Shown: piece after piece, positions 9,056 to 61,799 of the stretch
Position numbering within the stretch: position 1 is the stretch's first letter
How the letters are laid out: each line of letters opens with the position of its first letter
Source of the DNA: Eubacteriales bacterium
Lineage (GTDB): Bacteria > Bacillota > Clostridia > Oscillospirales > CAG-382
Assembly: GCA_045643125.1 (NCBI GenBank)
Contig: JAZUKE010000085.1
Coordinates: 8,992-72,991, forward strand
Length of the DNA: 64,000 bases
Reading direction: 5' to 3'
Program-made: the position numbers and the translations under genes
The notes under the pieces: model-generated
The model's input: only the letters and a program-made list of their open reading frames with translations
Database searches by the model: none
Told to the model about the DNA's origin: nothing

Positions 9056-9084
9056 TTGACAGAAATCCCAAACGAGTGTATACT
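9056..9084 (+). promoter_or_regulatory. Sigma-A-type promoter candidate
   Basis: TTGACA (9056-9061), 17 nt, TATACT (9079-9084), about 50 nt upstream of the 9134 ATG. Confidence 0.5.
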
Positions 9085-9133
9085 TGTTTCAAGGCGTAAG
9101 CCTTAGAAAACAAAATAATGGGAGAAAAACATT

Positions 9134-25518: not shown

Positions 25519-26676
25519 TTATTTTGCTCCTACCGCGCCAACGAACTGCTCCGCGATCGCTGCTGCATTTTCGGCGTCCGTCGACGCTGACGTGACGGCA
25601 AACACGTTTTTGCCTTCCGACCAGACGACGGTGGTGTAATACTCCGAAACGCAGCATACCGCGTCAAGCCCGAGAAGAGTCACGTCGGTTTTCGTGCTGC
25701 TGTCGGTGTCGTAAAACGCGCAGACGGTATTGCTTTCGGTTTCGGGGAAAATAACGTAATCGAAAACGCCGTCGCTGCCGCTTATTTCGATATCTATACC
25801 GATGAAGCGCTCGCCTTTTGAATTTTCATAACCTTTGATATTGCAGCCCGTACGTTCATAACCTTCGGGTATCGTGATTTTTCCGACTGTTTCTTCTGCG
25901 GAGGCAAAATCCTCGTCTTCGATGACTTTTTTGTAGTCGTAGTCGATGACGGTGTTGGACTTTACGCTTATCTTGCAGTTGTCGTCGATGTCAAGTTCAA
26001 GGCGAAGCGCCTTATTACTTTCGTTTTCGATGATATAGACGGCACATTCGCCGACGTTGACGGGAGTTATGACGAACACGGCGTCTTTCACCGCCTCGTC
26101 GGTATACGACACCGCCTCGGTCGTGACGATCCTGTTATCGACATAGAGTGAGAAAGATTCGGTTTTTCTGTTCCTTATGCAGACGTTCAGCGTGTTTTCG
26201 CTTCCGAAAGCGATGACGTATTCGTAACCGTCCTGCGTGTAAGTCTGCAGCGGATCAAGCTCCTTATGCGAGCTTGACGAAAATTCGATATTCGCGGAAG
26301 CATCAACGGTGAAGTTGAGCTGGATCTCATAAATGCGGTCTTCGGGAATACCGTCTTTTTTGAGGACGAGGAAAAGCGAATACCTGCCTTCCTTCACGGG
26401 AGTGACGGAAAAAGACGCTTTGTTTTTGTCATCCGTTACGGCTTTGGCTTCTGCGGCGCCGTTTTCGGTGTCGTCAATCTTCCATTCATAGCCTTCGGGA
26501 AACTCGCCTTCGACAGTCACGGAAATGCTTTTTCCGTCTTTTTTGCAGTAATACTCGTATTTGCACGTCGGATCATCCGGCGTTATTTTTTTGCTTCCGC
26601 CGAATATCATAAGACATACGATAACGAGGACAAGAAGCAATATCACTGCCGCGGCTATAATATACGGTTTTTTCAT
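25519..26676 (-). CDS. N-terminally membrane-anchored extracytoplasmic protein, unknown function
   Basis: 385 aa. TM helix IIAAAVILLLVLVIVCLMIF followed by a beta-rich sequence. Part of the T4SS-like array. Confidence 0.7.
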   Translation of the reverse strand: MKKPYIIAAAVILLLVLVIVCLMIFGGSKKITPDDPTCKYEYYCKKDGKSISVTVEGEFPEGYEWKIDDTENGAAEAKAVTDDKNKASFSVTPVKEGRYSLFLVLKKDGIPEDRIYEIQLNFTVDASANIEFSSSSHKELDPLQTYTQDGYEYVIAFGSENTLNVCIRNRKTESFSLYVDNRIVTTEAVSYTDEAVKDAVFVITPVNVGECAVYIIENESNKALRLELDIDDNCKISVKSNTVIDYDYKKVIEDEDFASAEETVGKITIPEGYERTGCNIKGYENSKGERFIGIDIEISGSDGVFDYVIFPETESNTVCAFYDTDSSTKTDVTLLGLDAVCCVSEYYTTVVWSEGKNVFAVTSASTDAENAAAIAEQFVGAVGAK

Positions 26677-26733
26677 TTTTTCGTCCTCCGGATTGTACTT
26701 ACAGTTTCTTTTTTGTAAAAATCAATGGATCTA

Positions 26734-31272: not shown

Positions 31273-31310
31273 CGGTTTCCCCTCCGGAATCAGATTTTTA
31301 TGCCGTAAGA

Positions 31311-31625
31311 TTATTCAAACTTGAAAAGTGCCACGAATCCCGTCATTTCAAAAACTTCCATAACAAGGCGGTTCACATTTCTTATGATAAGCTCGCCGTT
31401 TTTCTTTTTCATTGCGATATGGAGTTTTTTGATAAGTCTGAGCCCTGCCGAGGATATGTAATCCATCGAAGCAAGGTTAAGCACTATGCTCGGGTATTTT
31501 TCCGCAAAGTCCATAATTATCGGCTCCGCGTCTACCGTCGTGAGCGAATCAAGGCGTCCGTCAAGAAGCAGCTCCGCCTGATTTTCGTGTTTTACTATTT
31601 TTACTGTCAGTTTAATATCGTTCAT
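31311..31625 (-). CDS. STAS-domain protein (SpoIIAA/RsbV-type anti-sigma-factor antagonist)
   Basis: 104 aa. It aligns by eye with SpoIIAA across VLNL..MDYISSAGLRLI...VFEMTGF. The conserved phosphorylatable Ser is present (S58/S59). Confidence 0.85.
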   Translation of the reverse strand: MNDIKLTVKIVKHENQAELLLDGRLDSLTTVDAEPIIMDFAEKYPSIVLNLASMDYISSAGLRLIKKLHIAMKKKNGELIIRNVNRLVMEVFEMTGFVALFKFE

Positions 31626-31644
31626 CGTTTACTCCTAATGCCGT

Positions 31645-34600: not shown

Positions 34601-35397
34601 TTTTCATAGGAATTTCTGATGTCTTCGACTTTTTTGTATTCGTTCTGCAGATATTCGTCATAAAGAGTCGGGCGTTCGATCTTGACGATGTTGGCAGCAT
34701 AGTTCGCGGAAAGCGAGCGCAGCACCCTGCCGACGCTGTTGTCTATCGAATTTATGCGTCTGCTCGGAGACAGAAAACGGAATTCGACCGGGTCGATCTC
34801 GATGACCGCGCCGTAGTATTCGCCTCCGTACTCGATAAAGCCGTCCTTTATTCCGGTGAACGGTATGGTCTCTTTCATCGGCTCTGCTTTGAGCTTCTTG
34901 CCGGAACGCTTCTCGGTCTTTCTTGCGGCGCTCTGATTTGCGCGTTTGAGCCAGATGGCGTCCTCTTCCTCTTTGGTCAGCGTTTTGCTCTTTAATTTTT
35001 TGTCGTCGGCTTTGCGCTCGGCTTTTTCGGCTTTGAGCCTTGCCTTGCGCTCGTCGGGCGTTTCCGCCTTTACTTCCGGCTCTTTTTCTTCCGTTTCTCC
35101 GTTTTCGGGGTGCGAAACGAGTTCAGCGTCGGGGACAGAGCGTGTGAAATTGCGTTTATACGCAAAATGGCGCAGAACGTGGAGGACGAAGATATAGTTC
35201 GGCTCCGAATCAAGGCGCACCAAAAGGGCGGCAGTAAGCAGTATTATGCCGAAAATAATATATATCTTTCCCGGGATGGTGGACGTAAGCACGAACACGA
35301 CGAGTATCGCCGCCGCCACGGAAATTATTATATCGCTGAGAGTAACCCCTTTGAAAAGTTCTATCTGAACCTTTGTTTTTCCGGGTATCAGTCTCAC
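31645..35397 (-). CDS. VirB4-family T4SS ATPase with an N-terminal VirB3/PrgI-like two-TM module and a long acidic C-terminal tail
   Basis: 1250 aa. Two TM helices in the first 80 aa, a Lys/Glu-rich linker, Walker A VIVGKSGSGKSF, then FILDPENEY and Walker B VVVIDEAHVF. About 290 C-terminal residues are low-complexity Asp/Glu-rich sequence. Confidence 0.85.
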   Translation of the reverse strand: MRLIPGKTKVQIELFKGVTLSDIIISVAAAILVVFVLTSTIPGKIYIIFGIILLTAALLVRLDSEPNYIFVLHVLRHFAYKRNFTRSVPDAELVSHPENGETEEKEPEVKAETPDERKARLKAEKAERKADDKKLKSKTLTKEEEDAIWLKRANQSAARKTEKRSGKKLKAEPMKETIPFTGIKDGFIEYGGEYYGAVIEIDPVEFRFLSPSRRINSIDNSVGRVLRSLSANYAANIVKIERPTLYDEYLQNEYKKVEDIRNSYENGVLSEDEFKARIEVLCDRINDLENLCYNEKVVQPFYYMVLFDSDKNQLHNTVFSALDTLSNGEMNVRRLDDKQLAVFLKYTNGLDFNERDIDHVDPSKYAEWAMPESVNMKYRTVNVNGILTHNMRIVSYPSLVDDAWLASVMSIPATKVVVKCRPMDREKAVRGIDRSLQELRVMYMSTGIDSRKIELQDHIDTLSSLLTTLKGDNETLLEVNVFVTAYDIMATSASLGKKIEDLNSSLSVIANMKRTVRRVYRESNMRLNAMDFDQVNAFVASQISGWDPLYKKGRGIPSNSVAGCYPWIFAHISDKNGVKLGSSDGVPVFIDFFRRDSERVNSNMVIVGKSGSGKSFAAKSLLSNLAADDAKIFILDPENEYTELAANLHGKFINVGNAQYGRLNPFHIITALDDDEADGSSVSGTYATHLQFLEEFFRQILPDCDKDAMEYLNSLIDRMYTNMGISGETDLSVLTPEDYPTFDDLYDAILSEFQSTDNEYIRTMLRTLMNYIAKFSSGGRNANIWNGPSTVTTDENFTVFNFQSLLANRNGAIANAQMLLVLKYIDNEIIKNRDYNTRHKLNRKIVVVIDEAHVFIDTKFPVALDFMFQLAKRIRKYNGMQIVITQNIKDFVGSEEIARKSTAIINACQYSFIFSLSPNDIGDLCTLYEKAGGINESEQEQIVSAPRGQAFTIMSPQSRSTFKVEVPDDVVAMFSEEDYGTRYFAGESGEAKWEEFIGGSREKHENSVNEIKKKKSETVSDNGLFRKKNTSGSVSFIEISEDEAASVAVTPQKAKTEAVSAPVVIEDEADDLDIPDIPDDPAEFGKMRSASKKVSVEDVTEKTNRPADVSPTVVVQTAPVSNETEKMLGELLGRFSYDTMMQEIRRSVREELEKEMESKKAELSASSVPAVQNADNAEKAEEKTESKAEEPETSTSSDTEDDGGFDIMKLLALEAENMKNMSPIDLMEEYGEDVLEIKLEELVQYNTRHG

Positions 35398-35451
35398 AAG
35401 GGTCCACCGCCTTTCGTCATATCTTGCCCGCTATACGCGGGTGAAGTGTCA

Positions 35452-37416
35452 TTATTTTTTGTCATTTCCGGGCATTATGCCGCTCGGAATGTTCTTGTTG
35501 CCGTTGTTGTCCTGATAAGAAGGATTGTTCTGAACGTGCTGTTTGTACTGTTCGACAAACGGGTTTTCTTCGTTCTTATTCTTTGCCGTGTCCGCTTTTT
35601 GCTTTGATTCGGCTTCCTTCCTTTCGGCTGCGGCTTTCTTGCCGCCGACTCCGACGCCGTACTTTCTTTCGCTTTCTTCAAGCGACTTCATACCGACTTC
35701 CTTCTGACGGCTCTTGATCTGACCTTCGGTCTCGTGCTTGGCGAGGTTGTATATGCCTCTTGCACCGCCGATGAACAGACCGCCCTTCTGCGACATATAG
35801 TTCTTGGCGTCCATCAGCTTGCCGCCGACGTATTTACCTGCGGAAACAACGCCCGTCATATTCGCCGCGGCGCTTACCGTGCTGCCTATCGCACCGGCTG
35901 TCCTGCTGAACGTCCTGCCCGCAAGTCCGCTCATATCGCCTGCGCGTACCGACGCATAGCCTGCGCTGTTGGCAAGTATGCCGGTGACGATCTCGCTGAA
36001 CTTATTTGCGGCTTCGATGGAACCGACAATAAGCAGCGCCTTGGCAAGAATGTTTGCCGTGGGCGATTCCGAAAGCAGTACGAGCTTGGTATCGAGGATC
36101 ACGGGAATGAATATCATAACGAGACGCATCGGGATGATGCACCCGAACACGCCGAACATCTGCACGACGGTGGAGGTTATCCACTGCTTGAATTTTTCGC
36201 CGTTGTCGAGCGGCGACGTTGCGATTATCGGCGGAGCTATGATATACAGACCTATGAGGTTGAACATACGCGCTATGCAGTTGAAAATACATATCGCAAG
36301 GTTTTTCATCGTAAAGTACGCCATAAGCACTATCGTGACGTACGATATGCCCGAAAGCCCTATGTTGAATGCGTCCTTTACCTGGTTTTTGTTATAAATC
36401 GACTGCTTTCCGTAATAGAACGGGCCTCTGACCGCGTCGGTTATCGCGGGGCTTTTGTTGTAGGAATTGTTCTTTGCCGCTTCAAGCGTACCCATAAGGA
36501 AGATCACTCTGTCGAGCGTACATTCATCCGACGCAGTACCCGACGAGGAGCCGTAATGGAGCGATATTTTCTCTATCGGCTTGAACGAAGCGTCCTTGCG
36601 GAGCAGTTCCATAAGCTCGAGCATCTTCGCGGACGTGTCGGTATAGGCGTCTATCTTCTGTTCCCTGTTCGGATCGCAGCTGCGGATGAGCGATTGGAGC
36701 GCCGACTGCCACGTTTCGCCGTTTTCGGTGTCATAATAGAAGTCGAATACTCCGTTTTGCTGAAGATAGAGCAGATCCTCCCTTATTTCGTTATAACAGC
36801 TGTTCAGATTGTATCGGCTGTTGTACGACGAGTTGAGCGAGTAGTTGCCTATCGTATTGTAGATACGCGCCATCGCGGCAAATTCAAGGTTGGTGAATTT
36901 ATGTTCTTTGTCGTATTCAAAGTTTCCGGCATTGTCGAAAATAAAGCTGACCTGCTGGATAAGCACGTTCGTTATGTTTATCGACGCCGCCATTATCGCG
37001 TTCATCAGAAGTATCGTGAGTATGTTCTTACCGGCGCTGACCAGCATCATACCGTAGGACTGCTGCTGTTTTCCGTTGATATCGGCGGCTTTCCGTATGA
37101 CTGCTATTATCAGCATCGCAAACGTAATGACTATCCCGATAAGCGCCATTCCCCAATATATATCGTTGATAAGCGAATTGCCGAAGAAAATATTTATGAG
37201 ATAATCCTTCTGACCGTTATAGGAAACCTTTTTTATACCGGCAAATACCGAAAAGAATTCGTAGACGAGCTTGACGATTTTACACAGTGCCGCAACTATG
37301 TCGTAGAAAAGGCTGCCGAAAAAGTTGCCTATGGCACCGTTTATGGCGCTTCCTATGGCATCGACTACGCCGTCGAGGAAGTCCATTATGCCGTCAAATA
37401 TTCCGCCTAACATCAT
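35452..37416 (-). CDS. Polytopic membrane protein (VirB6/TrbL-like role inferred)
   Basis: 654 aa with at least 6 hydrophobic segments and a Lys/Glu-rich C-terminal tail. It sits directly upstream of the VirB4-like gene, as VirB6 analogues do in Gram-positive T4SSs. Confidence 0.6.
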   Translation of the reverse strand: MMLGGIFDGIMDFLDGVVDAIGSAINGAIGNFFGSLFYDIVAALCKIVKLVYEFFSVFAGIKKVSYNGQKDYLINIFFGNSLINDIYWGMALIGIVITFAMLIIAVIRKAADINGKQQQSYGMMLVSAGKNILTILLMNAIMAASINITNVLIQQVSFIFDNAGNFEYDKEHKFTNLEFAAMARIYNTIGNYSLNSSYNSRYNLNSCYNEIREDLLYLQQNGVFDFYYDTENGETWQSALQSLIRSCDPNREQKIDAYTDTSAKMLELMELLRKDASFKPIEKISLHYGSSSGTASDECTLDRVIFLMGTLEAAKNNSYNKSPAITDAVRGPFYYGKQSIYNKNQVKDAFNIGLSGISYVTIVLMAYFTMKNLAICIFNCIARMFNLIGLYIIAPPIIATSPLDNGEKFKQWITSTVVQMFGVFGCIIPMRLVMIFIPVILDTKLVLLSESPTANILAKALLIVGSIEAANKFSEIVTGILANSAGYASVRAGDMSGLAGRTFSRTAGAIGSTVSAAANMTGVVSAGKYVGGKLMDAKNYMSQKGGLFIGGARGIYNLAKHETEGQIKSRQKEVGMKSLEESERKYGVGVGGKKAAAERKEAESKQKADTAKNKNEENPFVEQYKQHVQNNPSYQDNNGNKNIPSGIMPGNDKK

Positions 37417-37464
37417 TGTTTGTCACCTTGCTTTCTTTTGCAAATCCGCAAAAAAGTCGTTTGC

Positions 37465-38388
37465 TCATCTGATACGGTGTTTTTTTCTTGACATCACGAG
37501 ATACGCGATGAGTGCCGCTATAAGGGCGGCGACTATTACGATAAAAATGATACTGTTGAAATTGAAATAAATATCTATCACGAACGAATACACGGTCAGA
37601 TTTCCCGCGGCGTCGGCAACGGTTATTTCGTAACTGCCGTTCTGGATAAGTTCTTTTGAATACGGGATCTCGTTCCCGTTGAGCTTAATGAGTATCCTTG
37701 CGCCGTCTTCGAGGTCGGAGATATCGACTTTTCCCTTTGCGTGACCGTCGATGACGTTTTCGAGTTTAAGTACGGGCGGCGTATGATCGACCGTAAACTG
37801 CACCGAATAGACCATATCGGTGTTTATACATCTGTACTCGATGGTATAATCGCCCTCTTTTTCGGTCCCTGCCGTTCTGCCGCTGAAAGTGACATATTCG
37901 CCGTTGTAAAGCACGGACGCTATTTCAAATCCGTTCGGCACGGTATAATCGTAAATCAGCCCCGTTCTTTTGCCGAGTATCGTAAAGCGGATCTGCTTCT
38001 GCGCGTCGTCGTTGAACATAATGACGTAGCTGCCCGCCGCGGATATCGACGTCGTGTCGTTGTTGATGAGTTCCTTGCTGTCGCGGTAGATCTTTGCTTT
38101 AAGTCCTTCGTCGAACGAAACGGAAACCGTCTGCGTGGTGGCGATATCAGCCGGCACGTTAAGGTATACCTTTCCTTCGGCGAAGTCGTAAACGTAAGCC
38201 TTTTTAATTCTGTCGTAATAAACGTCCGCGTACACGCGCACAAGCTCGTCGTCGTTCCCGCTTTTTCCTTTCGGCTCTCCCGTTCTGTCGTCAAGCTCGC
38301 CCTCGTAATCCATATCCGCGGCGGAAACGGCAAGCGGAAACGCGAACATCAGCAAAATCAATGCAAACGCGATGATCCTATTTCTCAT
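37465..38388 (-). CDS. Secreted protein with a C-terminal TM anchor, unknown function
   Basis: 307 aa. Signal peptide (IIAFALILLMFAFPLAVSA), a beta-rich ectodomain, and a C-terminal helix IIFIVIVAALIAALIAYLV followed by RKKHRIR. Confidence 0.65.
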   Translation of the reverse strand: MRNRIIAFALILLMFAFPLAVSAADMDYEGELDDRTGEPKGKSGNDDELVRVYADVYYDRIKKAYVYDFAEGKVYLNVPADIATTQTVSVSFDEGLKAKIYRDSKELINNDTTSISAAGSYVIMFNDDAQKQIRFTILGKRTGLIYDYTVPNGFEIASVLYNGEYVTFSGRTAGTEKEGDYTIEYRCINTDMVYSVQFTVDHTPPVLKLENVIDGHAKGKVDISDLEDGARILIKLNGNEIPYSKELIQNGSYEITVADAAGNLTVYSFVIDIYFNFNSIIFIVIVAALIAALIAYLVMSRKKHRIR

Positions 38389-38410
38389 AATATCCGCTCC
38401 TTTCCGTTAT

Positions 38411-40423
38411 TCAGCCGCCGACGACAAGACTGTTTCTCTTGTTGATGTCATAGAACACATCATCCGCGCGGAAAACGTGCGAACGGAATTCTTCCATATC
38501 CATTTTGCCGAATTTATAGTATTTGCATCTGTACGACGGGGTATATTTCGTTTTCAGCGGGTAGTTGCCGAACGTGACTATGATGGCGTTGCCCGTGGAT
38601 TCCTTGTTGTTGAGCTTCTGCAGTTCGGACGGGTAGATGAGCGGACGTGTCTGAAGCTGATTGGAGATATTGACGTCGCCCTCTTTGGAGCCGGTGCTTG
38701 ACGAAGTGCTGGTCGTCCTTACGGTCTTGTTGCCGCAAAGCTCGGAAAACTCCTTGCACGTTCCTATATCGTTGGAGCCGATGAACATTTTCATCGCGCA
38801 GTTGGATTTTACGACGTCAGCCACGCCTTCGCCGTAAATATTGTTGAGCTGCGCGTAGCTTTGTACGACCATATTGAACCATATCTTGCGGCTTCTGCCG
38901 ACGGTTATCATCTTGTCGAATTTTTCGATCTTGGGCATATTGCCGAATTCATCCATTATGAAATAGACGTTGCGCGGAAGCGAAAGATCTTCCCTCGAAG
39001 ACGCGACTTTGATGAGCGCTTTATACATACTCAGAACGAACAGCGACGCGAGTCCGTGACGGGTGTCCTTTTCGTCGGGTATTTTGAGGAAAAGCACGGT
39101 CGGACGGTCGGCAAACTGTTCGGCGTGGATATCGGTCGCGGAGGTGAGCCCGCATATACCGCGGTCGTTGAACAGATTCATCTTGTCGAACGTTATCGAC
39201 ATATAGCTCGAAAGCGTCTGCTCGGCAGATGCAAGCACCTGACGCGAAAGCGTGACCGCCTGCGACAGCGGGCTTCTGCCGGCAAAGTAATTTTTGAGGG
39301 CTTTATAGTTGTTTTCGCTGTTGGTAAGTATCTTGTTGAGGTTGAAGAAATTGAATTTTTCCTTTGTCATTTCAAGACGCGGGTCTTCGCTGTCTTCAAG
39401 CATCGCAAGGCAGGTGGCAAGCACGATGGAGCGTGCACCTTTTTCCCAAAGCGGATCTTTTTCGTTGGTTATGGGGCATATACCGGAAACGAGGTCGTTC
39501 AGATCCTCGAACATTTCGTCGTATATCTTCTGTTTTGCAACGGCAACGTCGTCCTGACAATGGTGCAGGTCGGCGTAGGCTTTGCCGTTCCATTCGCACC
39601 AGAGGCTTCCGCTTTCGCACACGCCGTCGACTTTTTTCAGATCGGGATAATTGTCCATAGGATCGCGGTGCGCGACGATGCCGCTGCCCGCTTTGAGGTA
39701 TTCGCGGTACATATCCCATATCGGCTCAAGCGGATTCCAGCGCGAAGACGAATAGGTGTCGCGCAGGTCGAGGACGAGTACGTCGTAGCCGCGTTCCTTG
39801 AGGTATTTGGAGTGCAACTCAAAAAGCTCGCCCTTCGGGTCGGTGATTATCATACTCGATCCGCAGTTGGTGGCAGCGAGAAGCTGTATCATCGGGTTGA
39901 TGAAGGTAGTCGTTTTGCCGGAGCCGGTGGAGCCGATGACGAGCGAATGTGCGCCCGACATAAAGTTGACCTTGAGTTTGCCTTTGTTGTCCACGAGTGC
40001 GCGTACCGGGATGCCGTCCTTTTTCACTCCGGCAAGTCCTTCGTACATTACGGGCGCAAAGTTGGAATCTCTTTCTTTTTCAGTCATAAAACGGCTGTTT
40101 TCGAGCACGCTCGCATCGACGTCGCCGCCCTTATCGCCTCTTGAAAAGATGCCGTCGCCGAAATTGAGGTTCATCCCGGAGCTTATCCAATAAAGGACGA
40201 TTCCGATGATGACCGCGGCAAGTCCGACCAAAAGAGTTCTCGGTTCAAGCAGGTAAGCGGGATTGAGCGCAAAGCCGTTGCCCCTGATTATATCTCCGAC
40301 GCCGGAAAGTATGCTGACTATGAGAAAGCCTATGAGCAGTGAACCGACAAGGATAATGAAGGCATAAAGCACCCAGAGCCATTTTGATTTTCCTTTCATT
40401 TTTCCCGTGAGATGACCGAACAT
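38411..40423 (-). CDS. Type IV coupling protein (VirD4/TraG family)
   Basis: 670 aa. Two N-terminal TM helices, Walker A LVIGSTGSGKTTT, Walker B YFIMDEFGNM, then GRSRKIWFNMVVQSYAQL. Confidence 0.9.
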   Translation of the reverse strand: MFGHLTGKMKGKSKWLWVLYAFIILVGSLLIGFLIVSILSGVGDIIRGNGFALNPAYLLEPRTLLVGLAAVIIGIVLYWISSGMNLNFGDGIFSRGDKGGDVDASVLENSRFMTEKERDSNFAPVMYEGLAGVKKDGIPVRALVDNKGKLKVNFMSGAHSLVIGSTGSGKTTTFINPMIQLLAATNCGSSMIITDPKGELFELHSKYLKERGYDVLVLDLRDTYSSSRWNPLEPIWDMYREYLKAGSGIVAHRDPMDNYPDLKKVDGVCESGSLWCEWNGKAYADLHHCQDDVAVAKQKIYDEMFEDLNDLVSGICPITNEKDPLWEKGARSIVLATCLAMLEDSEDPRLEMTKEKFNFFNLNKILTNSENNYKALKNYFAGRSPLSQAVTLSRQVLASAEQTLSSYMSITFDKMNLFNDRGICGLTSATDIHAEQFADRPTVLFLKIPDEKDTRHGLASLFVLSMYKALIKVASSREDLSLPRNVYFIMDEFGNMPKIEKFDKMITVGRSRKIWFNMVVQSYAQLNNIYGEGVADVVKSNCAMKMFIGSNDIGTCKEFSELCGNKTVRTTSTSSSTGSKEGDVNISNQLQTRPLIYPSELQKLNNKESTGNAIIVTFGNYPLKTKYTPSYRCKYYKFGKMDMEEFRSHVFRADDVFYDINKRNSLVVGG

Positions 40424-40461
40424 ATTGCTCCCTCTCTTTCCTTATATATAAAAAGTCTTTA

Positions 40462-41982
40462 TCAGTTGTCGAAAACGGTTTTTGACGAATTCGTGACCGT
40501 TGTGAAATCGTACCAGTTTTCGCCTTTTTTGACGTAGTTTTCGGTGTTTGAATAGTCGCTTACGGAATTCGGTACCACGGCAAGGTACGGATCCGTTTCG
40601 CTTGCCGTCAGTTTTCCGTAAGACGCGAAAGCCCTCCACGGGATCTCCTGTGCCGTGAAGTTGCCGTCGTACAATTCGCCGTATCCGAGGATGCACGTCC
40701 CGTGATTATCAAATACAGCCGAGCCCATATAAAGTCCGCCGGGTATGAGGATATAACCTTCGTTGTAGCAGGTTGTGCCTTTTTCGAGCTTGAAAACGGC
40801 GTTTTTATCGTGCAGCGCCAGCTTTGCACCGGATTTGACGACGATGCAGCCTTCGCCCTTGAGGGTGACTTTTTTGACCTTCGTGCCGCCTTTGCCGTCG
40901 GAAACGCGCGTTTCCTTTATGTACTCGGAATCGCAGCCCCTGCAGTAGATCGAGCCGCTGCCGGACGTTTTGTATTCCGTCGAAATAACGGAAGCGTTTT
41001 CCTGAAGCAGCAGCGTGCCGTAATTATATATCGTTCCGTTGTTGATAAGACGTCCTTCGACCGAAACGACTGCGCCGGGTTCGATTATGAACTCCGTGCC
41101 TTCAAGTATAACGGAGCCGTCCGGGATGATGAACACGTCGCCGTCCTTTGCGGTGTAACGTTCTCCGGCTCCGCCGTAGGTTTTCCATGTTTCTTCCCTG
41201 CTGTACCAGATACGCGAGGAAAGAGCGTAATCGGCAAGCTTGCCCATATCGTAAAACGACAGCGGTGCAAATATTTTTTTGCCTTCTCCGCTTTCGCCGA
41301 AAGCAAGCGCGGTGTTTTTCGTTTTGAAGCAGAAGCAGAACTCATAAGGACGCATTTTCACTTTTCCTCCGATGTTCTGCGGATACCAATATTCGGTATG
41401 GCCGAAAACCAGCATATTGACGTCGTTTGCGGCGGTTTTTGTAACGGATCCGTAAAACGGAGGATTTGCCGCATCCGCTTTGTCGGTCGAATAAACGTAA
41501 TTCCCCTCGCTGTTTACAAGACGGTATTCGTAAAAGCCGTCGCCGCCCCAATTGTTTTTCGTTTTGGTCGTCTGAAGCGTGAACGACGATATTTTTTCCA
41601 ATGTGCAGAACGGTTCGCGGAGCTGATTTTTTGCGTCATCGCTGCTATTGTAGCATACCTTTGCAAAGTCCCCTCCCAAAGCCACGGTTTCGGCATTGTC
41701 GAGAGCGGAACGGAACGTATAGGGATAATAACTGTCAGCGGTTTTATAAACCGGAATTATGCCGTACGATACACTGTGCCAATTATTATCGCGTGCGACC
41801 GTGTTGAGCTGCATCTCGCGTTTCAGACGATCCCAGCTGTAAACGGTGATCGTTCCTTCGGAATTTTCTCCGCCTTCCGTTCTTGCTTCAAAGCCCGGAA
41901 GCATAATAAAGGACGCAAGAATAAAAACCGTGAGCGTAAGAACACGGATCGTATTGAATATTGCTTTTTTTGACATTTTCAT
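40462..41982 (-). CDS. Secreted protein with a beta-helix-like C-terminal region, unknown function
   Basis: I take the start at MKMSKKAIFNTIRVLTLTVFILASF (after AAGGA). The C-terminal half has repeated xGxIxNxGxL-type motifs. Confidence 0.6.
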   Translation of the reverse strand: MKMSKKAIFNTIRVLTLTVFILASFIMLPGFEARTEGGENSEGTITVYSWDRLKREMQLNTVARDNNWHSVSYGIIPVYKTADSYYPYTFRSALDNAETVALGGDFAKVCYNSSDDAKNQLREPFCTLEKISSFTLQTTKTKNNWGGDGFYEYRLVNSEGNYVYSTDKADAANPPFYGSVTKTAANDVNMLVFGHTEYWYPQNIGGKVKMRPYEFCFCFKTKNTALAFGESGEGKKIFAPLSFYDMGKLADYALSSRIWYSREETWKTYGGAGERYTAKDGDVFIIPDGSVILEGTEFIIEPGAVVSVEGRLINNGTIYNYGTLLLQENASVISTEYKTSGSGSIYCRGCDSEYIKETRVSDGKGGTKVKKVTLKGEGCIVVKSGAKLALHDKNAVFKLEKGTTCYNEGYILIPGGLYMGSAVFDNHGTCILGYGELYDGNFTAQEIPWRAFASYGKLTASETDPYLAVVPNSVSDYSNTENYVKKGENWYDFTTVTNSSKTVFDN

Positions 41983-42109
41983 ATCGGTTTCATCCTTTCG
42001 GCGTAAAATTCCGGGCAATGTATGTTTGCTTTCAAAAACGTTCGCTTATTTCTTCTGCTTTTTCTCCCGTTTTCCGTTTTCCATTTCAACGATTTCCGTT
42101 TTTGAAACG

Positions 42110-42367
42110 GCTCTTCCGCCTGAAAAACTCCTTTAAGTCGAGCGGACGCGAGTCCTCGCGCCGACCAAGCGAGCGTAACGGAATGAAGCGAAGCGCGATA
42201 AGCGCGAGAAAACCACTTACAAAACGCAGTTTTGCAAGTCCATTCTAATAAATCCTGTTTTTCGGGCAGCTCTGCCGCCTGAAAAACTCCTTCAAGACGA
42301 GCGGACGCGAGTCCTCGCGCCGACCAAGCAAGCGGAATGGAATGGAGCGAAGCGCGATAAGCGCGAG
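42110..42367. repeat. Two 99-nt direct repeats (about 90% identity, 159-bp period) inside the 476-bp gap after the pilin-like gene
   Basis: Copy 1 at 42110-42208 and copy 2 at 42269-42367. Each contains the GCGAG-ga-CTCGC and GCGCGATAAGCGCG palindromes. Confidence 0.85.
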
Positions 42368-42494
42368 GAAATCCCAAATCAAGGACTGCGGAACGCTGTC
42401 CTTGATTTGTGTGAAATAAAGCCCATCAGCCCTCACTGAAAACGGATAAATATCCATCGTCATAAGGGCTGACGGAGTTATTGCTTTTTTGTTA

Positions 42495-56549: not shown

Positions 56550-56780
56550 GTTTTCAGTTTTCAGTTTTCAGTTTTCAGAAGAATGGAAAAATGACAGCTT
56601 TTTGCGGCTGTCATTTTCTTTATATTCTTTCCAATCGAAGAAATTATTTTCACGCTTCCGCGTGAAAATAATCACCTCAATGTTGCGAAGCAACATATCA
56701 TATCGCAGCGCGATATATCATACGCCGCAGGCGTATATCATATTGCCTTAAGGCAATATATCATTTCGCGTCAGCGATAA
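56550..56780. repeat. Second full copy of the heptamer/hairpin-train repeat (includes the antiporter terminator)
   Basis: (GTTTTCA)x4 at 56550-56577. Terminator AAAATGACAGC-(8 nt)-GCTGTCATTTT at 56587-56617. The same ordered hairpins as at 1990-2192 follow. Confidence 0.85.
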
Positions 56781-57872
56781 TCAGTCCGCGAGCGGATATT
56801 TGTCAGGTCTCATCGTATGGCGAAGGAGATGCACCGCATCGTCGGTATCGGTATTGCCGTCGCCGTTCATATCGCCGCTTTGCTCCAAAGGGTACCGCAG
56901 CGGACGCATCGTGTGGCGGAGAAGGTACGCCGCATCGGACGCATTGACGGCTCTGTCGCCGTTGACGTCGCCGCGGATATACAGACGCCTCATATAGGTC
57001 ATCGAAGCGTACCCCTCGATACCGTTATATTCGACGTGCGCCCACTTCCCGTTTGCCTTCGTCACCTTGAAGATCCCGTCCGCGGGAATACTGCCGAGAG
57101 CGGCAAAAGACGTCCCGTGCCCCGAACGTATCGTCAGCGTGCCGGACACGTTGTCGGTGGTGTAAACTCCGGCGTATTTCTCCACACAGCCGCATTTTTC
57201 GCGGTCTGCGTAAGCCGAAATATGTACCGGTGAGTTTCTGACGTCGGAGTCGTTGAAATATATCTTGTGCTTGCGGATGTAATTGTGTCCGTAGGTGCCG
57301 TATTCCCAGTTGGAGTCAAGCACGTTCACGCCGTCCGAATCCACCGAAATTACTATCGCCGAATGGTTGAGCGACGATTTGTAAGCGGTCGTGTCCCACC
57401 TGAGGTTGTCCCCGATATGGGCGTGATCCTTCATTTCCTCATAGTTGAATCTGTACGTCCCGACGGGCTCAAGGGCAACGACGGAATCGACGCTTTCCGC
57501 GAAAATGTACCACGACGCAAACTCCGCGAAAGCGTAGCACGACCATCCGTCGGAATCGAATCCGCTTGTGTGGGGCGGATATTGACGGATATCCGTTTCG
57601 CCGAATTCTTCGATGAACCACGACGATCTGATTACCTTTGAAAGACGGCACTTTTCGCATACGCTGTTCCCGCAGTCGGAGCAGTCGGTGGTGAAGCGTT
57701 TGCCGCGCAGTTTAGAAAACAGCTCGTCGATACGTTCAAGGATCTCGTCGTCGGTGTAAACGTGCGTCTCCTGCGCGTCGTTTTTTGCTTTTTCTTTCGC
57801 CGCCTGCGGCATCAGCACGAAAAGCGGCAGCAGAGAGAGCGCAAGAAAGAACGGCAGTATTTTCTTTTTCAT
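56781..57872 (-). CDS. Secreted dockerin-bearing protein with a papain-like (CHAP/NlpC-type) domain and an SH3b domain
   Basis: Signal peptide. Cys/His candidates (DGWSCYAFAEF, LNHSAIVISV). SH3b-like GTLTIRSGHGTSFAALGSIP...WAHVEYNGIEGYA. Duplicated dockerin F-hand segments (DVNGDRAVNASDAAYLLRH and DMNGDGNTDTDDAVHLLRH). Confidence 0.7.
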   Translation of the reverse strand: MKKKILPFFLALSLLPLFVLMPQAAKEKAKNDAQETHVYTDDEILERIDELFSKLRGKRFTTDCSDCGNSVCEKCRLSKVIRSSWFIEEFGETDIRQYPPHTSGFDSDGWSCYAFAEFASWYIFAESVDSVVALEPVGTYRFNYEEMKDHAHIGDNLRWDTTAYKSSLNHSAIVISVDSDGVNVLDSNWEYGTYGHNYIRKHKIYFNDSDVRNSPVHISAYADREKCGCVEKYAGVYTTDNVSGTLTIRSGHGTSFAALGSIPADGIFKVTKANGKWAHVEYNGIEGYASMTYMRRLYIRGDVNGDRAVNASDAAYLLRHTMRPLRYPLEQSGDMNGDGNTDTDDAVHLLRHTMRPDKYPLAD

Positions 57873-57875
57873 AAT

Positions 57876-58910
57876 TCAGTCAACGTAGCCTTTGAGGACT
57901 TTGAGCGTGTTGAACACGCCGTCGATGTGGCTTCTTTCGTAGCCGTGGCTTGCGTAAACGCCGGAGCCGATAAGCCCGTGGCGGATATCGCTGCCCGCTT
58001 TGAGCGTGGCTTCAACGTCGGAGGAATAGTGCGGGTAAACGTCGAGCGCGTAGTCGGCGCCCTCTTTCTTTGCCGCGTCTATCAGCTTGGTAACGACGTC
58101 GTAGCTGTACGGGCCGCCCGAGTCCTTGACGCAGATGGAGACCTGCTTTTCGGTGCAGTTGAGTCCGTCGCCGACGCAGCCCATATCGACGCTTATCGCC
58201 TCGGTAACGCCGTCCGGCAGAGACGCCGAGCCGCCGTGACCGACTTCCTCGTACACGGTGACGTGGACGTACACCTTTCTTTCGGGGGCGATGCCGTTGT
58301 CGCGCAGATATTTTGCGTAGGCAAGCAGTATGCCGACGGAGAGCTTGTCGTCGAGGAAGCGGCTTTTTATGTAGCCGGACGAGGTGACGCGCGTCCTCGG
58401 CTCGAAGCACACGATGTCGCCGACCTCGATCCCGAGGGAGCGGGTGTCGGAAGCGGACTTCACGTCCTCGTCAAGCACGACCTCGGTGGTACCAAATGTC
58501 CTCTGCGTGGAGGAATAGTCGTCGTTGACGTGAACTGACGCATTCTTTATCTGGAGCGTGCCTTCGTAAACCTTGCCGCCGCGAGTGTAAACGCGGACGT
58601 TTTCGGTCTCGCCGTTTTCGGCTTTCATACCGCCGAGAGGCGTGACGCGGAGCCTGCCGTTTGATTTCACCTCGGCGACCATCGCGCCGAGCGTGTCGGT
58701 GTGGGCTTCGAGAAGCAGACCGTCGTTTTCGTCTTTTCCTCCGAGATATGCGAGAACTCCGCCCTTGCGGGTATATTCCGCTTTGAAGCCGAAGGACTCA
58801 AACTGCGTTTTCACCCATTCGGCAGCGGCAGCGGTGTAGCCCGACGGACTGTCTATGGCGAGCAGCTCCTTTGTTTTCTCGACGGCGTAAAGCGCGTATT
58901 CTTTTTTCAT
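57876..58910 (-). CDS. M42 family metallopeptidase (glutamyl aminopeptidase/FrvX-like)
   Basis: 344 aa (LLAIDSPSGYT..., LEAHTDTLG, YEEVGHGG). Confidence 0.85.
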   Translation of the reverse strand: MKKEYALYAVEKTKELLAIDSPSGYTAAAAEWVKTQFESFGFKAEYTRKGGVLAYLGGKDENDGLLLEAHTDTLGAMVAEVKSNGRLRVTPLGGMKAENGETENVRVYTRGGKVYEGTLQIKNASVHVNDDYSSTQRTFGTTEVVLDEDVKSASDTRSLGIEVGDIVCFEPRTRVTSSGYIKSRFLDDKLSVGILLAYAKYLRDNGIAPERKVYVHVTVYEEVGHGGSASLPDGVTEAISVDMGCVGDGLNCTEKQVSICVKDSGGPYSYDVVTKLIDAAKKEGADYALDVYPHYSSDVEATLKAGSDIRHGLIGSGVYASHGYERSHIDGVFNTLKVLKGYVD

Positions 58911-58995
58911 ATAACATCATTCCTTTGTTTTTTGTCTTTTTTTCATTATATCATCATATATTCTTCAAGTCAATCCGATTTTTGGGAAAAAACGC

Positions 58996-59024
58996 TTGAC
59001 AACGCGGACGGAAAATGCTATACT
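58996..59024 (+). promoter_or_regulatory. Strong sigma-A-type promoter candidate for the tRNA-like gene
   Basis: TTGACA (58996-59001), 17 nt, TATACT (59019-59024). The -10 element ends 24 nt before tRNA position 1. Confidence 0.6.
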
Positions 59025-59048
59025 GCACGCGTTAGATAAAATAACGAT

Positions 59049-59124
59049 GGGGGCGTAGCACAGTTGGGAGAGGGATGGGTCCGCAACGCATAGGTCAAGG
59101 GTTCGAGCCCCTCCGTCTCCACCA
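59049..59124 (+). tRNA. tRNA-Ala-like gene (anticodon CGC by position) with several non-canonical features
   Basis: 76 nt with encoded CCA. Acceptor GGGGGCG/CGTCTCC includes G3:U70. T-loop TTCGAGC and variable loop AGGTC. Against it: the D-stem has 2 mismatches (GCAC/GAGG), the anticodon stem has a G:G, 49:65 is A:C, and position 33 is C rather than U. Confidence 0.6.
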
Positions 59125-59159
59125 AACAAAAACGCCGAAAGGCGTTTTTTGTTTGGTGG
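59119..59159 (+). terminator. Long hairpin/terminator that includes the tRNA 3' CCA end
   Basis: CCACCAAACAAAAACGCC-gaaa-GGCGTTTTTTGTTTGGTGG. This is 18 bp with one bulged T. The core is CGCC-gaaa-GGCG plus a T-run. Confidence 0.6.
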
Positions 59160-59328
59160 AATGAAGTCGCCCTTGCGGGCTAATGAAGGAATGAAGACGC
59201 TTCGCTAATGAAGAAATGAAATGAGAGACCGGGAGAAACGCGGGCGACTTCGCTTCATGCGAACGAAGTGAGCGCTTCATAGAAACCGTAAGGTTTCTGC
59301 TTCATGTTTGCGAAGCAAACGCTTCATT
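59151..59328. repeat. Direct repeat DR1 (GCTTCAT-spaced hairpin train)
   Basis: 178 nt, more than 90% identical by eye to 61515-61694. It begins inside the right arm of the tRNA terminator. Confidence 0.9.
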
Positions 59329-59339
59329 CCCTTTTTCCC

Positions 59340-59368
59340 TTGAAATCCTGCAAAAAATATGCTATACT
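59340..59368 (+). promoter_or_regulatory. Sigma-A-type promoter candidate for the LRR gene
   Basis: TTGAAA (59340-59345), 17 nt, TATACT (59363-59368). Confidence 0.5.
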
Positions 59369-59467
59369 GAAGTATCAAATCAAAAAATCGAAAAAAATCA
59401 CGAAAAACAGTTTACCTTTTTCGTTTTCATTCGTATAAAGAGATAAAGACATATAAAGGAGCGATTT

Positions 59468-61477
59468 ATGATGAAAAAAATTGCAAGTTTGCTCTTAACG
59501 GTGGTTCTGCTTGCCGCCATGCTGACCGTGTTTGCCGTGCCGGCGAGTGCAGAGGAAACGTATGCGGCACAAGGGCTATGCGGTAGTGACGGCGAAGTTC
59601 ACTGGGGGCTGAGCAAGGACTACGAAACCCTGACCATTTGGGGGAACGGCAATATGAAGAATTATGCCAAGGATGAAGCGCCGTGGTATGAATATAACGC
59701 ATACAATACGGTAAAGCATCTCAAGGTGGGTATCAAAGAAACGGACAACATCACCCGAATCGGCAGTTATGCGTTTGCGTACTTTTATTATTTAGAAACG
59801 ATCGAACTCGGCGATGATATCGAAATGATCGAAGATTACGCTTTTTACTATGCAGGCTATTATACCGAAAACGCCAAAATTGATCTTGTAATTCCCTCTA
59901 CGGTTTTTTACATCGGACAATATGCGTTCTCCAAAACGTTTGGTCTGAAAAATGTATATATCAAGTCGGATTATGCAGCCATTCGAGCCTTTGCAAAAAA
60001 TAACAGTTTTCCAACTGTTCAGGGAAAAAATGTTACCGGCAAGGAAATTTATATTGAAAAGGGAGCGTTTTACGACTGCGAAAACATGGAAACACTGGCA
60101 ATCGGCAGCTTCAAAAAGAGTGAGAACAAGAATGTTCACATCGGGATATATGCGTTTGATTACTGCTATAAGTTGAGGACGATCTATTTCTCCGATTCTC
60201 TTGCCTCAATTTCGGAAGACTCATTTTACGATTGCACGGTGTTGGAGACGGTTTACTATTTCGGAGAACAAGACAATTTTCCGAGAGATCAGGTATCGGG
60301 AAAGAACAACCCGCGTCTGGACAGAGCGGTCAACTATCGGATATGTATGCCTTATATCGACACATACAAGCACGATGCCAACTACCATTGGATTAACAAC
60401 ACTGCAGGAATACCGCTGTACTACGATGAAGGAAAAAAACCGCACAACTTTATCGAGGCAGTGGATGATAAATACAAGGTAGAGGGCAGCTATGTGCGGT
60501 ATTACAAGAGCTGTGCTGTCTGCGGAAGGGCAGACAGTGAAACCTTTTCGACGTCGTATTTTGATATTCCCGGAATTATACGTTTGACCACCGAAACGAC
60601 TACTTTGGATACCGGCTGGTATATTGTTGACAGTCAGCTTGATTTCGGCAGTACCCGTTTGCAGATCAACGGGGACGTAAAGATCACGTTGCTTGACGGC
60701 TGCGGCATTACTACGTCCGGCGGTATCCATGTCAAAAATCACACAAAGCTTACCGTGTGCAGTGATTCGATAGACCTGTCAGAGAACAACAACATGGGTT
60801 ATATCAAGGTGACCGGCGCACCTGATGAAAGTGCCGGTATCGGAAGTGACAGCGAGGATGAGACGGACCTTAAAACCGGTGTGTTGGCGGTTCTCGACCT
60901 ATATAGAGGCGCCGGCGAAGTCATTATCTGCGGAGGAAACGTAGATGTGCGCGGTGGTTATAATGGAGCCGGGATCGGCAGCGGAGATATGGCCGGTCTT
61001 TTTGTCACAATTAACAACGGACGTGTGATTGCCCACGGAGGTTTTGACGGAGCCGGGATCGGCAGCGGAAACTGTGCTGTATCATATGTCACGATCAACG
61101 ACGGTTACGTTGAAGCACATGGCGGATATGAAGCTGCCGGTATAGGCTGCGGTGGAACAACTTTCGACATAGGAGGTTCTGCGGTCTATATAAAAGGCGG
61201 CACAGTCAAAGCATGGGGTGGAAATGGTTCTTACGCTATCGGCAACAGCAAAACAAATCATAAGTGTTCAGTTTCCTACAGTGGAAATGCTAAGGTAGAA
61301 GCCTACGACGACAAAAATGCATGGATGTTTGCTTCCGTCCTCTCCGAAGGCTACATTTGGATCGTCATTGCCGTTGCAGTTGTCGCTCTCGGCGGCGTTG
61401 CGGCACTCATTATAGTTAAAAAGAAGAAAAAGAAGCCCGCACTTGCAGGCGGCGCAGACAAAACAGACGGAGAATAA
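59468..61477 (+). CDS. Cell-surface leucine-rich-repeat (BspA-like) protein with a Gly-rich beta-helix-like region and a C-terminal TM anchor
   Basis: 669 aa. Signal peptide. BspA-type LRR motifs (IGSYAFAYFYYLETIELGDDIEMIEDYAF..., IGIYAFDYCYKLRTIYF). Repeats GGYNGAGIGSG / GGFDGAGIGSG / GGYEAAGIGCGG. Anchor IWIVIAVAVVALGGVAALIIV followed by KKKKKK. Confidence 0.8.
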   Translation: MMKKIASLLLTVVLLAAMLTVFAVPASAEETYAAQGLCGSDGEVHWGLSKDYETLTIWGNGNMKNYAKDEAPWYEYNAYNTVKHLKVGIKETDNITRIGSYAFAYFYYLETIELGDDIEMIEDYAFYYAGYYTENAKIDLVIPSTVFYIGQYAFSKTFGLKNVYIKSDYAAIRAFAKNNSFPTVQGKNVTGKEIYIEKGAFYDCENMETLAIGSFKKSENKNVHIGIYAFDYCYKLRTIYFSDSLASISEDSFYDCTVLETVYYFGEQDNFPRDQVSGKNNPRLDRAVNYRICMPYIDTYKHDANYHWINNTAGIPLYYDEGKKPHNFIEAVDDKYKVEGSYVRYYKSCAVCGRADSETFSTSYFDIPGIIRLTTETTTLDTGWYIVDSQLDFGSTRLQINGDVKITLLDGCGITTSGGIHVKNHTKLTVCSDSIDLSENNNMGYIKVTGAPDESAGIGSDSEDETDLKTGVLAVLDLYRGAGEVIICGGNVDVRGGYNGAGIGSGDMAGLFVTINNGRVIAHGGFDGAGIGSGNCAVSYVTINDGYVEAHGGYEAAGIGCGGTTFDIGGSAVYIKGGTVKAWGGNGSYAIGNSKTNHKCSVSYSGNAKVEAYDDKNAWMFASVLSEGYIWIVIAVAVVALGGVAALIIVKKKKKKPALAGGADKTDGE

Positions 61478-61514
61478 AAACGACTTTTTCGATTTCTTAC
61501 CTTGAATATACGAC

Positions 61515-61694
61515 GTTTGGTAGAATGAAGTCGCCCCTATACGGGGCTAATGAAGAATGAAGACGCTTCGCTAATGAAGAAATGAAATGAGAGAACTGGA
61601 GAAACGCGGGCGGCTTCGCTTCATGCGAACGAAGTGAGCGCTTCATAGAAACCGTAAGGTTTCTGCTTCATGTTTGCGAAGCAAACGCTTCATT
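61515..61694. repeat. Direct repeat DR2
   Basis: 180 nt, the partner of DR1. The differences include paired stem changes (GCCC-ttgc-GGGC versus GCCCC-tatac-GGGGC). Confidence 0.9.
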
Positions 61695-61799
61695 TCGCCC
61701 CGAAAAAACTTAAAAAACCGCAAAAAAAAATGCAGCAAAGAATGTAATATTTTCCTTCCTCACGGGGTATTGAAAGCGAAAAGGAAAGGGGCAGAAAAT

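Follow-up and report, generated by a model that had tools for sequence, protein, structure and literature searches.

Why should a single gene for a surface protein stand between two nearly identical repeats, just beyond a tRNA gene? The question is posed by the plus strand of a 64,000-nt stretch of DNA from a Eubacteriales bacterium (contig JAZUKE010000085.1; the whole stretch is called the window), in which a gene for a protein with leucine-rich repeats (LRR) lies between direct repeats DR1 (59151 to 59328) and DR2 (61515 to 61694). The stretch considered runs from 59151 to 61694, together with its flanks. A sequence-only reading took the gene and its repeats for a foreign adhesin cassette. 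I propose that the locus is probably a recombination-prone slot for variable surface proteins, placed 3' of tRNA-Ala(CGC), the content of which is changed by homologous recombination or gene conversion among repeated modules.

Consider first the repeats. They are as alike as had been claimed (more than 90% identity): DR1 and DR2 agree at 172 of 181 positions (95.0%), and they are the only two copies of their subfamily in the window, and adjacent. It had also been noticed, correctly, that DR1 starts inside the right arm of the terminator of the tRNA gene and that DR2 opens with the same decamer bearing one change. The terminator is a long hairpin at 59119 to 59159 (core 59128 to 59149 by terminator scan), evident in the sequence CCACCAAACAAAAACGCC-GAAA-GGCGTTTTTTGTTTGGTGG. 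Its left arm takes in the CCACCA at the 3' end of the tRNA, and DR1 begins within its right arm (GTTTGGTGG). The decamer of DR2, GTTTGGTAGA, matches at 9 of 10 nucleotides and has no left arm ahead of it. Since DR2 carries nine-tenths of this piece of a terminator without the terminator, it would descend from a repeat that stood next to the tRNA gene, and the 95% identity of the pair calls for a recent copying event.

Each repeat is thus a piece of terminator arm (9 nt in DR1; the remnant GTTTGGTAG in DR2) joined to an element that I shall call a double hairpin train, at 59160 to 59328 and 61524 to 61695, respectively, as judged by profile match and, for DR1, by RNA folding as well. The plan of the element is a 7-nt word (ATGAAG) given four to five times between short G+C-rich hairpins, then a centre, then CTTCAT, the reverse-complement word, four times with other hairpins between. 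When a single strand is folded, the words of one half pair with those of the other, and the hairpins form side branches (z -5.1 for DR1, -3.7 for DR2). The left half of DR1 and DR2 has four to five ATGAAG or ATGAAA words with one full and one truncated hairpin, and the right half has three full hairpins between CTTCAT words, which is the antisense orientation.

Between the repeats there is, as had been said, one gene, a single open reading frame (ORF) of 669 codons at 59468 to 61477, confirmed by ORF call and Pfam. Its own promoter was also rightly recognized: TTGAAA-17-TATACT at 59340 to 59368, with a TG extension and 10 of 12 positions matched. A 99-nt leader (59369 to 59467; ttcgtataaa ... 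acatataaaggagcgattt), common to a family of surface proteins, follows. The signal peptide (59468 to 59551; N-terminus MMKKIASLLLTVVLLAAMLTVFAVPASA followed by EE) shows a basic start, a hydrophobic core and an A-x-A end. The middle of the protein consists of BspA-type LRR, then a part containing cysteine, then beta-helix repeats with a period of 84 nt (about 60952 to 61153). Pfam finds LRR_5 (PF13306; E 1.3e-23, at 83.7 bits well past the cutoff of 27.7) and Beta_helix_3 (E 2e-13). The C-terminal anchor (61334 to 61477) is a hydrophobic transmembrane helix, KKKKKK and a short tail. A signal peptide at one end and a hydrophobic helix with KKKKKK at the other make this, therefore, a type-I membrane-anchored surface protein by prediction, and the LRR_5 domain and secretion signal together place it among the BspA-type LRR surface proteins.

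What stands in this place in other genomes? Exact-sequence look-ups of the window's LRR and M42 peptidase proteins returned no match, and related loci were for that reason reached through homologues of the M42 peptidase. The most informative is L003, whose M42 peptidase is 99% identical and whose flanking DNA is 98.5% identical, and which is therefore taken to be conspecific; the conspecific comparison is of this one genome, a metagenome contig. The order in L003 is M42, tRNA-Ala, terminator (outer stem retained, centre different), a single ATGAAG train, promoter and leader as in the window, then a gene for 726 aa and a terminator. The 726-aa protein has LRR_5, Flg_new_2 and Cys-rich repeats, and in its LRR part is 36% identical to the window's protein. 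It has the same anchor, and 26 of 29 residues of its signal peptide are identical. The same promoter and leader are thus found ahead of a different cargo gene.

The limits of the similarity are informative. The window and L003 match at 94% over 56788 to 59560, which covers the train, promoter, leader (5' untranslated region) and signal peptide, then not at all, and then at 79% over 61334 to 61477. The gap from 59560 to 61334 says that the exchanged segment is the exposed middle of the protein, bounded by coding modules and not by the trains. A second difference between the two strains points the same way. L003 (5030 to 11150) has two genes more than the window (56583 to 56788), of 867 and 916 aa with Flg_new, cohesin and dockerin domains, between a Na+/H+ exchanger gene and an SH3/dockerin gene. 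Trains were considered as borders of this indel and rejected: the borders are repeated dockerin-coding sequence, which means that recombination between coding modules is active in the region. I infer that the content of the slot likewise changes by homologous recombination between shared modules, coding and non-coding.

Other relatives extend the picture. In a sister species, L005 (M42 86% identical), tRNA-Ala is followed by a Gut-1 train (word ATGATAT), a promoter, an unrelated Cys-rich gene of 124 aa, a terminator, a second train (ATGATG) and the orthologue of the window's downstream gene. L127 (87%) has a train with the word GTGATG after tRNA-Ala and then a different gene, and L004 (87%), where the tRNA is tRNA-Ala(TGC), has neither train nor cargo. 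L001 has the closest homologue of the LRR protein (44% identity), and in it family genes stand in tandem with the same leader, signal peptide and anchor, with no trains between them. The window itself holds no further member of the family. The LRR gene belongs to the flexible gene pool, in line with the sequence-only reading: its place is taken by a different LRR gene in L003 and by an unrelated small one in L005, and L004 has no cargo at all. The insertion of a foreign cassette is less well supported: promoter, leader, signal peptide and anchor are shared with the alternative allele, and the replaced part ends within coding sequence.

Composition had been an argument for a low-G+C adhesin island from a foreign donor, set down next to a tRNA gene. 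The LRR gene has 46.6% G+C (43.4% in its 5' half) and 51% at third codon positions (GC3), to be compared with 51.5 +/- 2.6% and 61.7 +/- 6.3% for genes of the window (z -1.9 and -1.7). Its G+C is the second-lowest of the 44 ORFs called and its codon usage the third most atypical of 41 genes tested (z -2.1). It is thus below the mean, as claimed, but by about two standard deviations only, and the contrast first drawn, 32 to 40% against 55 to 68%, came from hand-picked extreme lines. GC3 is equal in the two halves of the gene, which means that the AT-richness of the LRR half reflects amino-acid composition. Nor is the deviation foreign to the clade, whose flexible surface genes are as AT-rich or more so: GC3 is 0.49 and 0.40 in the two L003 cohesin/dockerin genes, 0.35 in the L005 cargo gene and 0.41 to 0.57 in the L001 family genes. 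The compositional signal is mild.

The remaining support for such an island is its position beside a tRNA gene, the lack of the LRR gene in the conspecific strain, and the distance of its nearest homologue. That homologue is 44% identical, and the top homologues, none closer than that, come from related metagenome-assembled genomes (MAGs). Moreover, the modules around the exposed middle are native to the family. Among the window's 44 ORFs that reach 150 aa or more, Pfam found no integrase or transposase domain, in accord with the original remark that no integrase is present, and blastn of the whole cassette against plasmid and phage collections gave no match. There is no att-type duplication of the tRNA 3' end, and a tRNA-targeting integrative island was rejected on this account: besides the lack of integrase, the decamer that is repeated, GTTTGGTGGA, belongs to the terminator arm, and it complements the 3' end of the tRNA and does not copy it. 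I consider a foreign island quite unlikely.

The single train of L003 permits a three-way alignment with the repeats. That train is 85.6% identical to DR1 and 87.1% to DR2, and the alignment is a mosaic. DR2 agrees with L003 in two places, the first hairpin (TCGCCCCTATACGGGGC) and the 3' flank (ccccgaaaaaactt[a/g]aaa[a/g]ccg), whereas in the hairpins of the second half DR1 agrees with DR2, and L003 has others (ACGAGCGAAAGCGAGT, GGCGGCTTTGCCGCC). The flank in L003 is the -35 region of a working promoter. Its counterpart next to DR2 (61695 to 61733), which looks like the family promoter's -35 region (ccccgaaaaaacTTAAAAaaccgcaaa), passes at about 61712 to 61718 into the upstream region of the downstream gene. 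By BLAST, 61515 to 61733 is 86.6% identical to the L003 train with its promoter. The mosaic, together with the piece of terminator arm in DR2, points to past conversion or crossing-over between copies of the train.

The mechanism that I favour, recombination among repeated modules within a surface-protein slot, can be put as follows. The LRR gene would be one member of a paralogous family with a common promoter, leader, signal peptide and anchor and a divergent exposed middle, and the modules exchanged would be the trains, the promoter with its leader, the signal peptide, the anchor and, nearby, the dockerin modules. DR2 would derive from the copy adjacent to the tRNA gene, by local duplication or gene conversion that carried 9 nt of the terminator arm along, and the pair would since have been partly homogenised. 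An ancestor with two tandem units, each of train, promoter and family gene, fits, as a scenario that stays unproven: the window's lineage would have kept the first gene with the train and promoter stub of the second unit, and the lineage of L003 one hybrid train and the second gene. What the trains would supply is portable homology and, possibly, a 3'-end or terminator structure; they would not be sites for a dedicated integrase. DR1 would then close the tRNA unit and DR2 the LRR gene, which otherwise lacks a terminator. A terminator-like hairpin was sought in the 37-nt spacer between the LRR stop codon and DR2 (61478 to 61514) and none was found; those the terminator scan detects 3' of the gene (61646 to 61665 and 61671 to 61687) are inside DR2.

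Several observations weigh against this account. The second-half hairpins of L003 are unlike those of both DR1 and DR2, and extra conversions in one lineage are needed to explain them. The L003 contig stops 12 nt into what appears to be a second train (its last letters, CAATGAAGCGCA, open a canonical train). No empty site, with tRNA, one train and the downstream gene, was seen. Most copies of the train come after a terminator. The codon usage of the gene deviates somewhat (z about -2), and it may conceivably have been acquired from outside the species. Finally, the conspecific orthologue of the downstream gene (99% identical) lies 14 kb from the cargo, beside other genes. The match between the window and conspecific L126 begins at 61712, where DR2 and its flank have their right edge, and a breakpoint there may mean that trains take part in rearrangements beyond plain homology.

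The arrangement in L126 deserves description. At 7475 to 9909 the downstream orthologue stands beside a gene for an iron-dependent alcohol dehydrogenase and a 332-aa gene that is missing at the equivalent place in the window; on the left side of 52643 a DUF218 gene is found in the window instead. Either the strains differ by an inversion or rearrangement of about 9 kb, or the metagenome contig is chimeric; L005, though more distant, keeps the gene order of the window. The window's downstream gene begins at 61800, about 100 nt beyond DR2, and runs off the window at 64000. It is an orthologue of a 1065-aa protein, P0241, and has no Pfam domain.

Are trains peculiar to this slot? They are not. 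The pattern GCTTCAT-N(12-20)-GCTTCAT-N(12-20)-GCTTCAT occurs at no fewer than 120 loci (at least that many) in species-representative genomes, and among the matches listed the spacers are hairpins in 30 loci. Nearly all of those, among the matches listed, are from uncultured Clostridia/Oscillospirales or from Lentisphaeria, Victivallaceae and Kiritimatiellia, and the carriers are mostly MAGs from animal guts. The clostridial family, about 165 nt, can be written [terminator] CA-ATGAAGC-hp-ATGAAAAATGAAGC-hp-ATGAAGC-hp-ACGGAGA...GCGCTTC-GCTTCAT-hp-GCTTCAT-hp-GCTTCAT-hp-GCTTCAT, where hp is a hairpin. Run with a profile of 15 elements that were drawn from other genomes, the window and L003 left out, nhmmer finds DR2 (61524 to 61695, E 1.7e-19) and DR1 (59160 to 59328, E 1.7e-18) over profile positions 3 to 169, and no other full-length match in the window. 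RNAalifold, given 10 members, yields 31 consensus pairs with compensatory changes in 13, and the word-word pairs are invariant. By these measures DR1 and DR2 are full-length members of a double hairpin-train family with the words ATGAAGC and GCTTCAT. An invariant 30-mer of the repeat had no match in a metagenome scan.

A text search of the literature for a named repeat family turned up only the 2010 description of the Gut-1 RNA motif (RF01706), a candidate non-coding RNA that was known from human-gut metagenomes only and had no known function (Weinberg et al. 2010, PMC2864571). Its consensus, CAaUGAAAU-hp-GUGAAAU-hp-GUGAAAu-hp-gUGAAAU, is one of three short hairpins separated by a repeated 7-nt word, which each half of a train resembles, and its first hairpin is the same as the first hairpin of DR1 (TCGCCCTTGCGGGC). 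Canonical trains match RF01706 at 32 to 46 bits, below the Rfam gathering threshold of 50 bits, with one match per half in opposite orientations. Matches over the threshold are found elsewhere: in the window at 56690 to 56766 (58.2 bits), in L003 at 10951 to 11027 (54.6) and in L005 at 7674 to 7748 (62.9). The last is the positional equivalent of DR1 and has an inverted partner at 41.8 bits. The model finds nothing in the DR1 region at E<=10 or in 58800 to 62000 at E<=1, and Rfam as a whole finds nothing on DR1 or DR2, which are filed, because the Gut-1 model does not detect them, as diverged relatives of Gut-1 and not as members. The differences are that the left half of DR1 and DR2 has lost one hairpin and truncated another, that the word is ATGAAG, and that the full element is an inverted pair of half-trains around a centre. 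It is also found mostly after a terminator and often after a tRNA gene; on this the Gut-1 passages of PMC2864571 are silent.

The positions of the trains bear on what they are for. Read in the direction that puts the Gut-1-like half in front, 6 of the 15 canonical elements come straight after a tRNA gene of the same orientation with its terminator, 4 straight after a co-oriented ORF, and 8 have a co-oriented ORF next downstream. Under a stricter filter, a tRNA 3' end is within 300 nt of 7 of 30 trains among the matches listed, where the chance expectation is far below 1% by a rough estimate made with no computed control. Trains are accordingly modules of the 3' end, or spacers, between units that run in the same direction, and with one train per unit end the bracketing of a single gene by two of them is partly a by-product. 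The bracketing that first drew attention is therefore real as regards the near-identical pair, but trains also mark the ends of many unrelated units (tRNAs, a dockerin gene, others).

Could the bracketing then be wholly incidental, Gut-1-like trains being common 3'-end elements with no role in the variability of the gene? All four strict trains in the window are directly 3' of a gene and in sense orientation, neighbouring trains in L005 and in L080 (a locus described below) use different words, and the similarity of the two alleles ends within coding sequence. An incidental pair, on the other hand, would not be expected to be 95% identical, nor the subfamily's only two copies in 64 kb to be adjacent, nor DR2 to bear a piece of the tRNA terminator arm, nor the alignment with L003 to be a mosaic, nor a rearrangement breakpoint to abut DR2. 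I therefore regard incidental bracketing as unlikely.

Two trains of the window belong to a second subfamily (word ATGATAT/ATATCAT). Both are on the minus strand, 54 kb apart, directly 3' of the SH3/dockerin gene (56643 to 56790) and of a DUF6062 gene (2021 to 2208), and each is followed by the same hairpin, AUUGAGGUGAUUAUUUUCACG...CGUGAAAAUAAUU. The one by the SH3/dockerin gene is the train that matches Gut-1 at 58.2 bits. At 4873 to 4985, 7020 to 7075 and 56550 to 56578, just after stop codons, are runs of 7-nt words without hairpins (GTTTTCA four to five times; ATTTGTC/ATTTGCA) that adjoin this hairpin module again (GAAAATAATYACCTYAAT). Such runs may represent trains that are 'empty' or have degenerated.

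A more dramatic possibility is that the trains are themselves recombination sites, acting when folded in the manner of attC, within a cassette system whose recombinase is encoded elsewhere and whose single-gene units collect at hotspots near tRNA genes. There is something to be said for it. The structure of the element is conserved while its hairpin sequences are swapped. The association with tRNA 3' ends is strong, a breakpoint stands at the right edge of DR2, L066 has a 22-nt duplicate of tRNA-Leu and L127 a partial duplicate of tRNA-Ala. In L080 two single-gene units follow one another, each with a conserved 3' segment, terminator and train and then a conserved promoter, and in L066 and L124 a 23S_rRNA_IVP gene lies between two trains. 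Against this, no recombinase is found in the 64-kb window. The ends of the elements have no conserved core like RYYYAAC/GTTRRRY: they read GG before AATGAAG and GCTTCATT before CC, and in canonical elements CA before ATGAAGC and TT after GCTTCAT. Each unit comes with a promoter, some trains stand after ordinary conserved genes, and in the only conspecific comparison the similarity ends in sequence coding for signal peptide and anchor, not at the trains. A cassette system of this kind is, I think, very unlikely.

The loci just named are worth recording in full. In L080 (5270 to 6820) the two units encode proteins of 147 and 212 aa with no Pfam match. Common to both are a conserved 3' segment about 95 nt long, a terminator, a train, whose word is ATGAAGC in the first unit and ATGAAATC in the second, and a promoter module, TTGAAA-17-TATAAT, that is identical in the two. 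L066 (7100 to 7960) and L124 (5100 to 6510) are unrelated Clostridia MAGs, each with a 23S_rRNA_IVP (four-helix-bundle) gene between its trains. In L066 the unit stands between tRNA-Leu and the 22-nt duplicate, which copies the 3' end of tRNA-Leu; this is an att-like signature without an integrase.

Narrower candidates were tried and rejected. An integron cassette with attC is ruled out by the lack of core sites and of an IntI-type tyrosine recombinase in the window, and by the gene's own promoter. A miniature inverted-repeat transposable element is ruled out as well: the inversion is confined to the 7-nt words, the hairpins do not mirror one another, and there is no duplicated flank at DR1, at DR2 or at canonical copies. 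The thought that the 7-nt words might be target-site duplications left by tiny hairpin insertions was also entertained; between orthologous trains, hairpins are seen to be replaced, not cleanly inserted. No Y1 transposase was found by Pfam in the 44 ORFs of the window, RAYT genes not having been sought outside it. As for viral carriage, the three-word pattern in viral contigs passes the hairpin-spacer filter (4-bp stems) at 2 of 120 loci, both with near-identical spacers, and the other pattern loci there resemble ordinary tandem repeats; with so few passing, trains are not phage-borne.

The distribution of trains suggests either horizontal spread or convergent use. Half-trains with the word GCTTCAT occur in Lentisphaeria/Victivallaceae MAGs (L022, L028, L116, L044, L057, L083), in another phylum of the same animal-gut habitats, directly after tRNA genes and terminators. 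One may conjecture that trains in general are DNA-level boundary modules, not small RNAs, that delimit exchangeable single-gene units at tRNA-proximal hotspots in gut Clostridia and Lentisphaeria, integron-like or REP-like, with a recombinase unlinked or absent, and that the LRR gene is one such unit caught soon after duplication or conversion. This is a long shot.

It helps to set the locus beside known systems. Like REP (repetitive extragenic palindromic) sequences and BIMEs (bacterial interspersed mosaic elements) of Enterobacteria and pseudomonads, trains are clusters of short extragenic palindromes with conserved linkers at the 3' ends of transcription units, modular, mosaic and possibly substrates for recombination and rearrangement. 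Trains vary in their hairpins and keep the linker word constant, the opposite of REP; further differences are the reverse-complement words of the two halves, a copy number that seems low (about 4 to 6 per 64 kb) and the lack of any relation in sequence. Integron cassettes, or clusters of attC without integrase, offer single-gene units between imperfect palindromes of 60 to 180 nt, conserved in structure and variable in sequence, with contents that differ between strains. They differ in having R''/R' cores and IntI; the units here have promoters and terminators of their own, and the swap that was examined ends within coding sequence.

There is a likeness, too, to variable surface-protein loci and tRNA-proximal islets, in which a conserved leader or signal peptide and anchor enclose a divergent middle and the alleles of conspecific strains share one slot by a tRNA gene, although the window has no archive of silent copies, no invertase, no integrase and no att duplication. 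The LRR protein resembles other BspA-like proteins (PF13306) in its LRR_5 domain, its secreted or surface location and its membership of a multi-copy, divergent family in gut anaerobes, but it has a C-terminal transmembrane helix with a poly-Lys stop-transfer sequence in place of a cell-wall sorting or Por signal, and Beta_helix_3 is added. A variable LRR surface-protein locus beside a tRNA gene is thus of a kind already known, and nothing here points yet to a new biochemical mechanism. To our knowledge, what has not been described is that the repeats are double, inverted Gut-1-like trains, that they are strongly associated with tRNA 3' ends and terminators, and that they flank strain-variable single-gene units.

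Two consequences follow. Relatives of Gut-1 turn out to be modular trains of word and hairpin, commonly in inverted pairs, after terminators and very often after tRNA genes, and around strain-variable genes of uncultured Clostridia from the gut, a placement that moves the likely function of Gut-1 towards a 3'-end or DNA-level element and gives an orphan motif loci at which ideas can be tested. And a slot that exchanges the exposed part of a BspA-type surface protein between strains would bear on adhesion, on phage or host recognition, and on strain typing.

There remains the tRNA gene itself (59049 to 59124), identified as tRNA-Ala(CGC) by ARAGORN, by its Rfam tRNA score and by alignment with relatives, and degenerate. 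The sequence-only reading called it tRNA-like, and the wording is apt: it scores 31.2 bits in Rfam, and the same tRNA in L003, L005 and L127, where the sequences are mutually identical, scores 59.2. It differs from the relatives' sequence at four positions only (T12A, C25G, C30G and U33C), and each change disrupts pairs of the D-stem or anticodon stem or the universal U33. The promoter (58996 to 59024; TTGACA-17-TATACT with TG extension, 11 of 12 matched) is kept in L003, L004, L005 and L127. This is probably a decaying, dispensable tRNA with its promoter and terminator intact. In L127, at 712 to 769 and 587 to 662, an identical 5' fragment of tRNA-Ala, about 47 nt, lies about 50 nt upstream of the full tRNA-Ala, a further sign that the tRNA-Ala site is prone to rearrangement.

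Farther off, the minus strand from 25519 to 42018 carries a co-oriented block with a VirB4/TraG P-loop ATPase (31645 to 35397), a VirD4/TraG-type coupling protein (38411 to 40423), a 1512-aa protein and several ORFs without Pfam match. Neither integrase nor relaxase was seen in it. The block may be the remnant of a conjugative element. At the end of this part, which resembles a type IV secretion system, stand two G+C-rich repeats of 133 nt (42080 to 42371; 85% identical, spacing 159 nt) that have no Rfam match and contain GGAATGAAGCGAAGCGCG and short hairpins.

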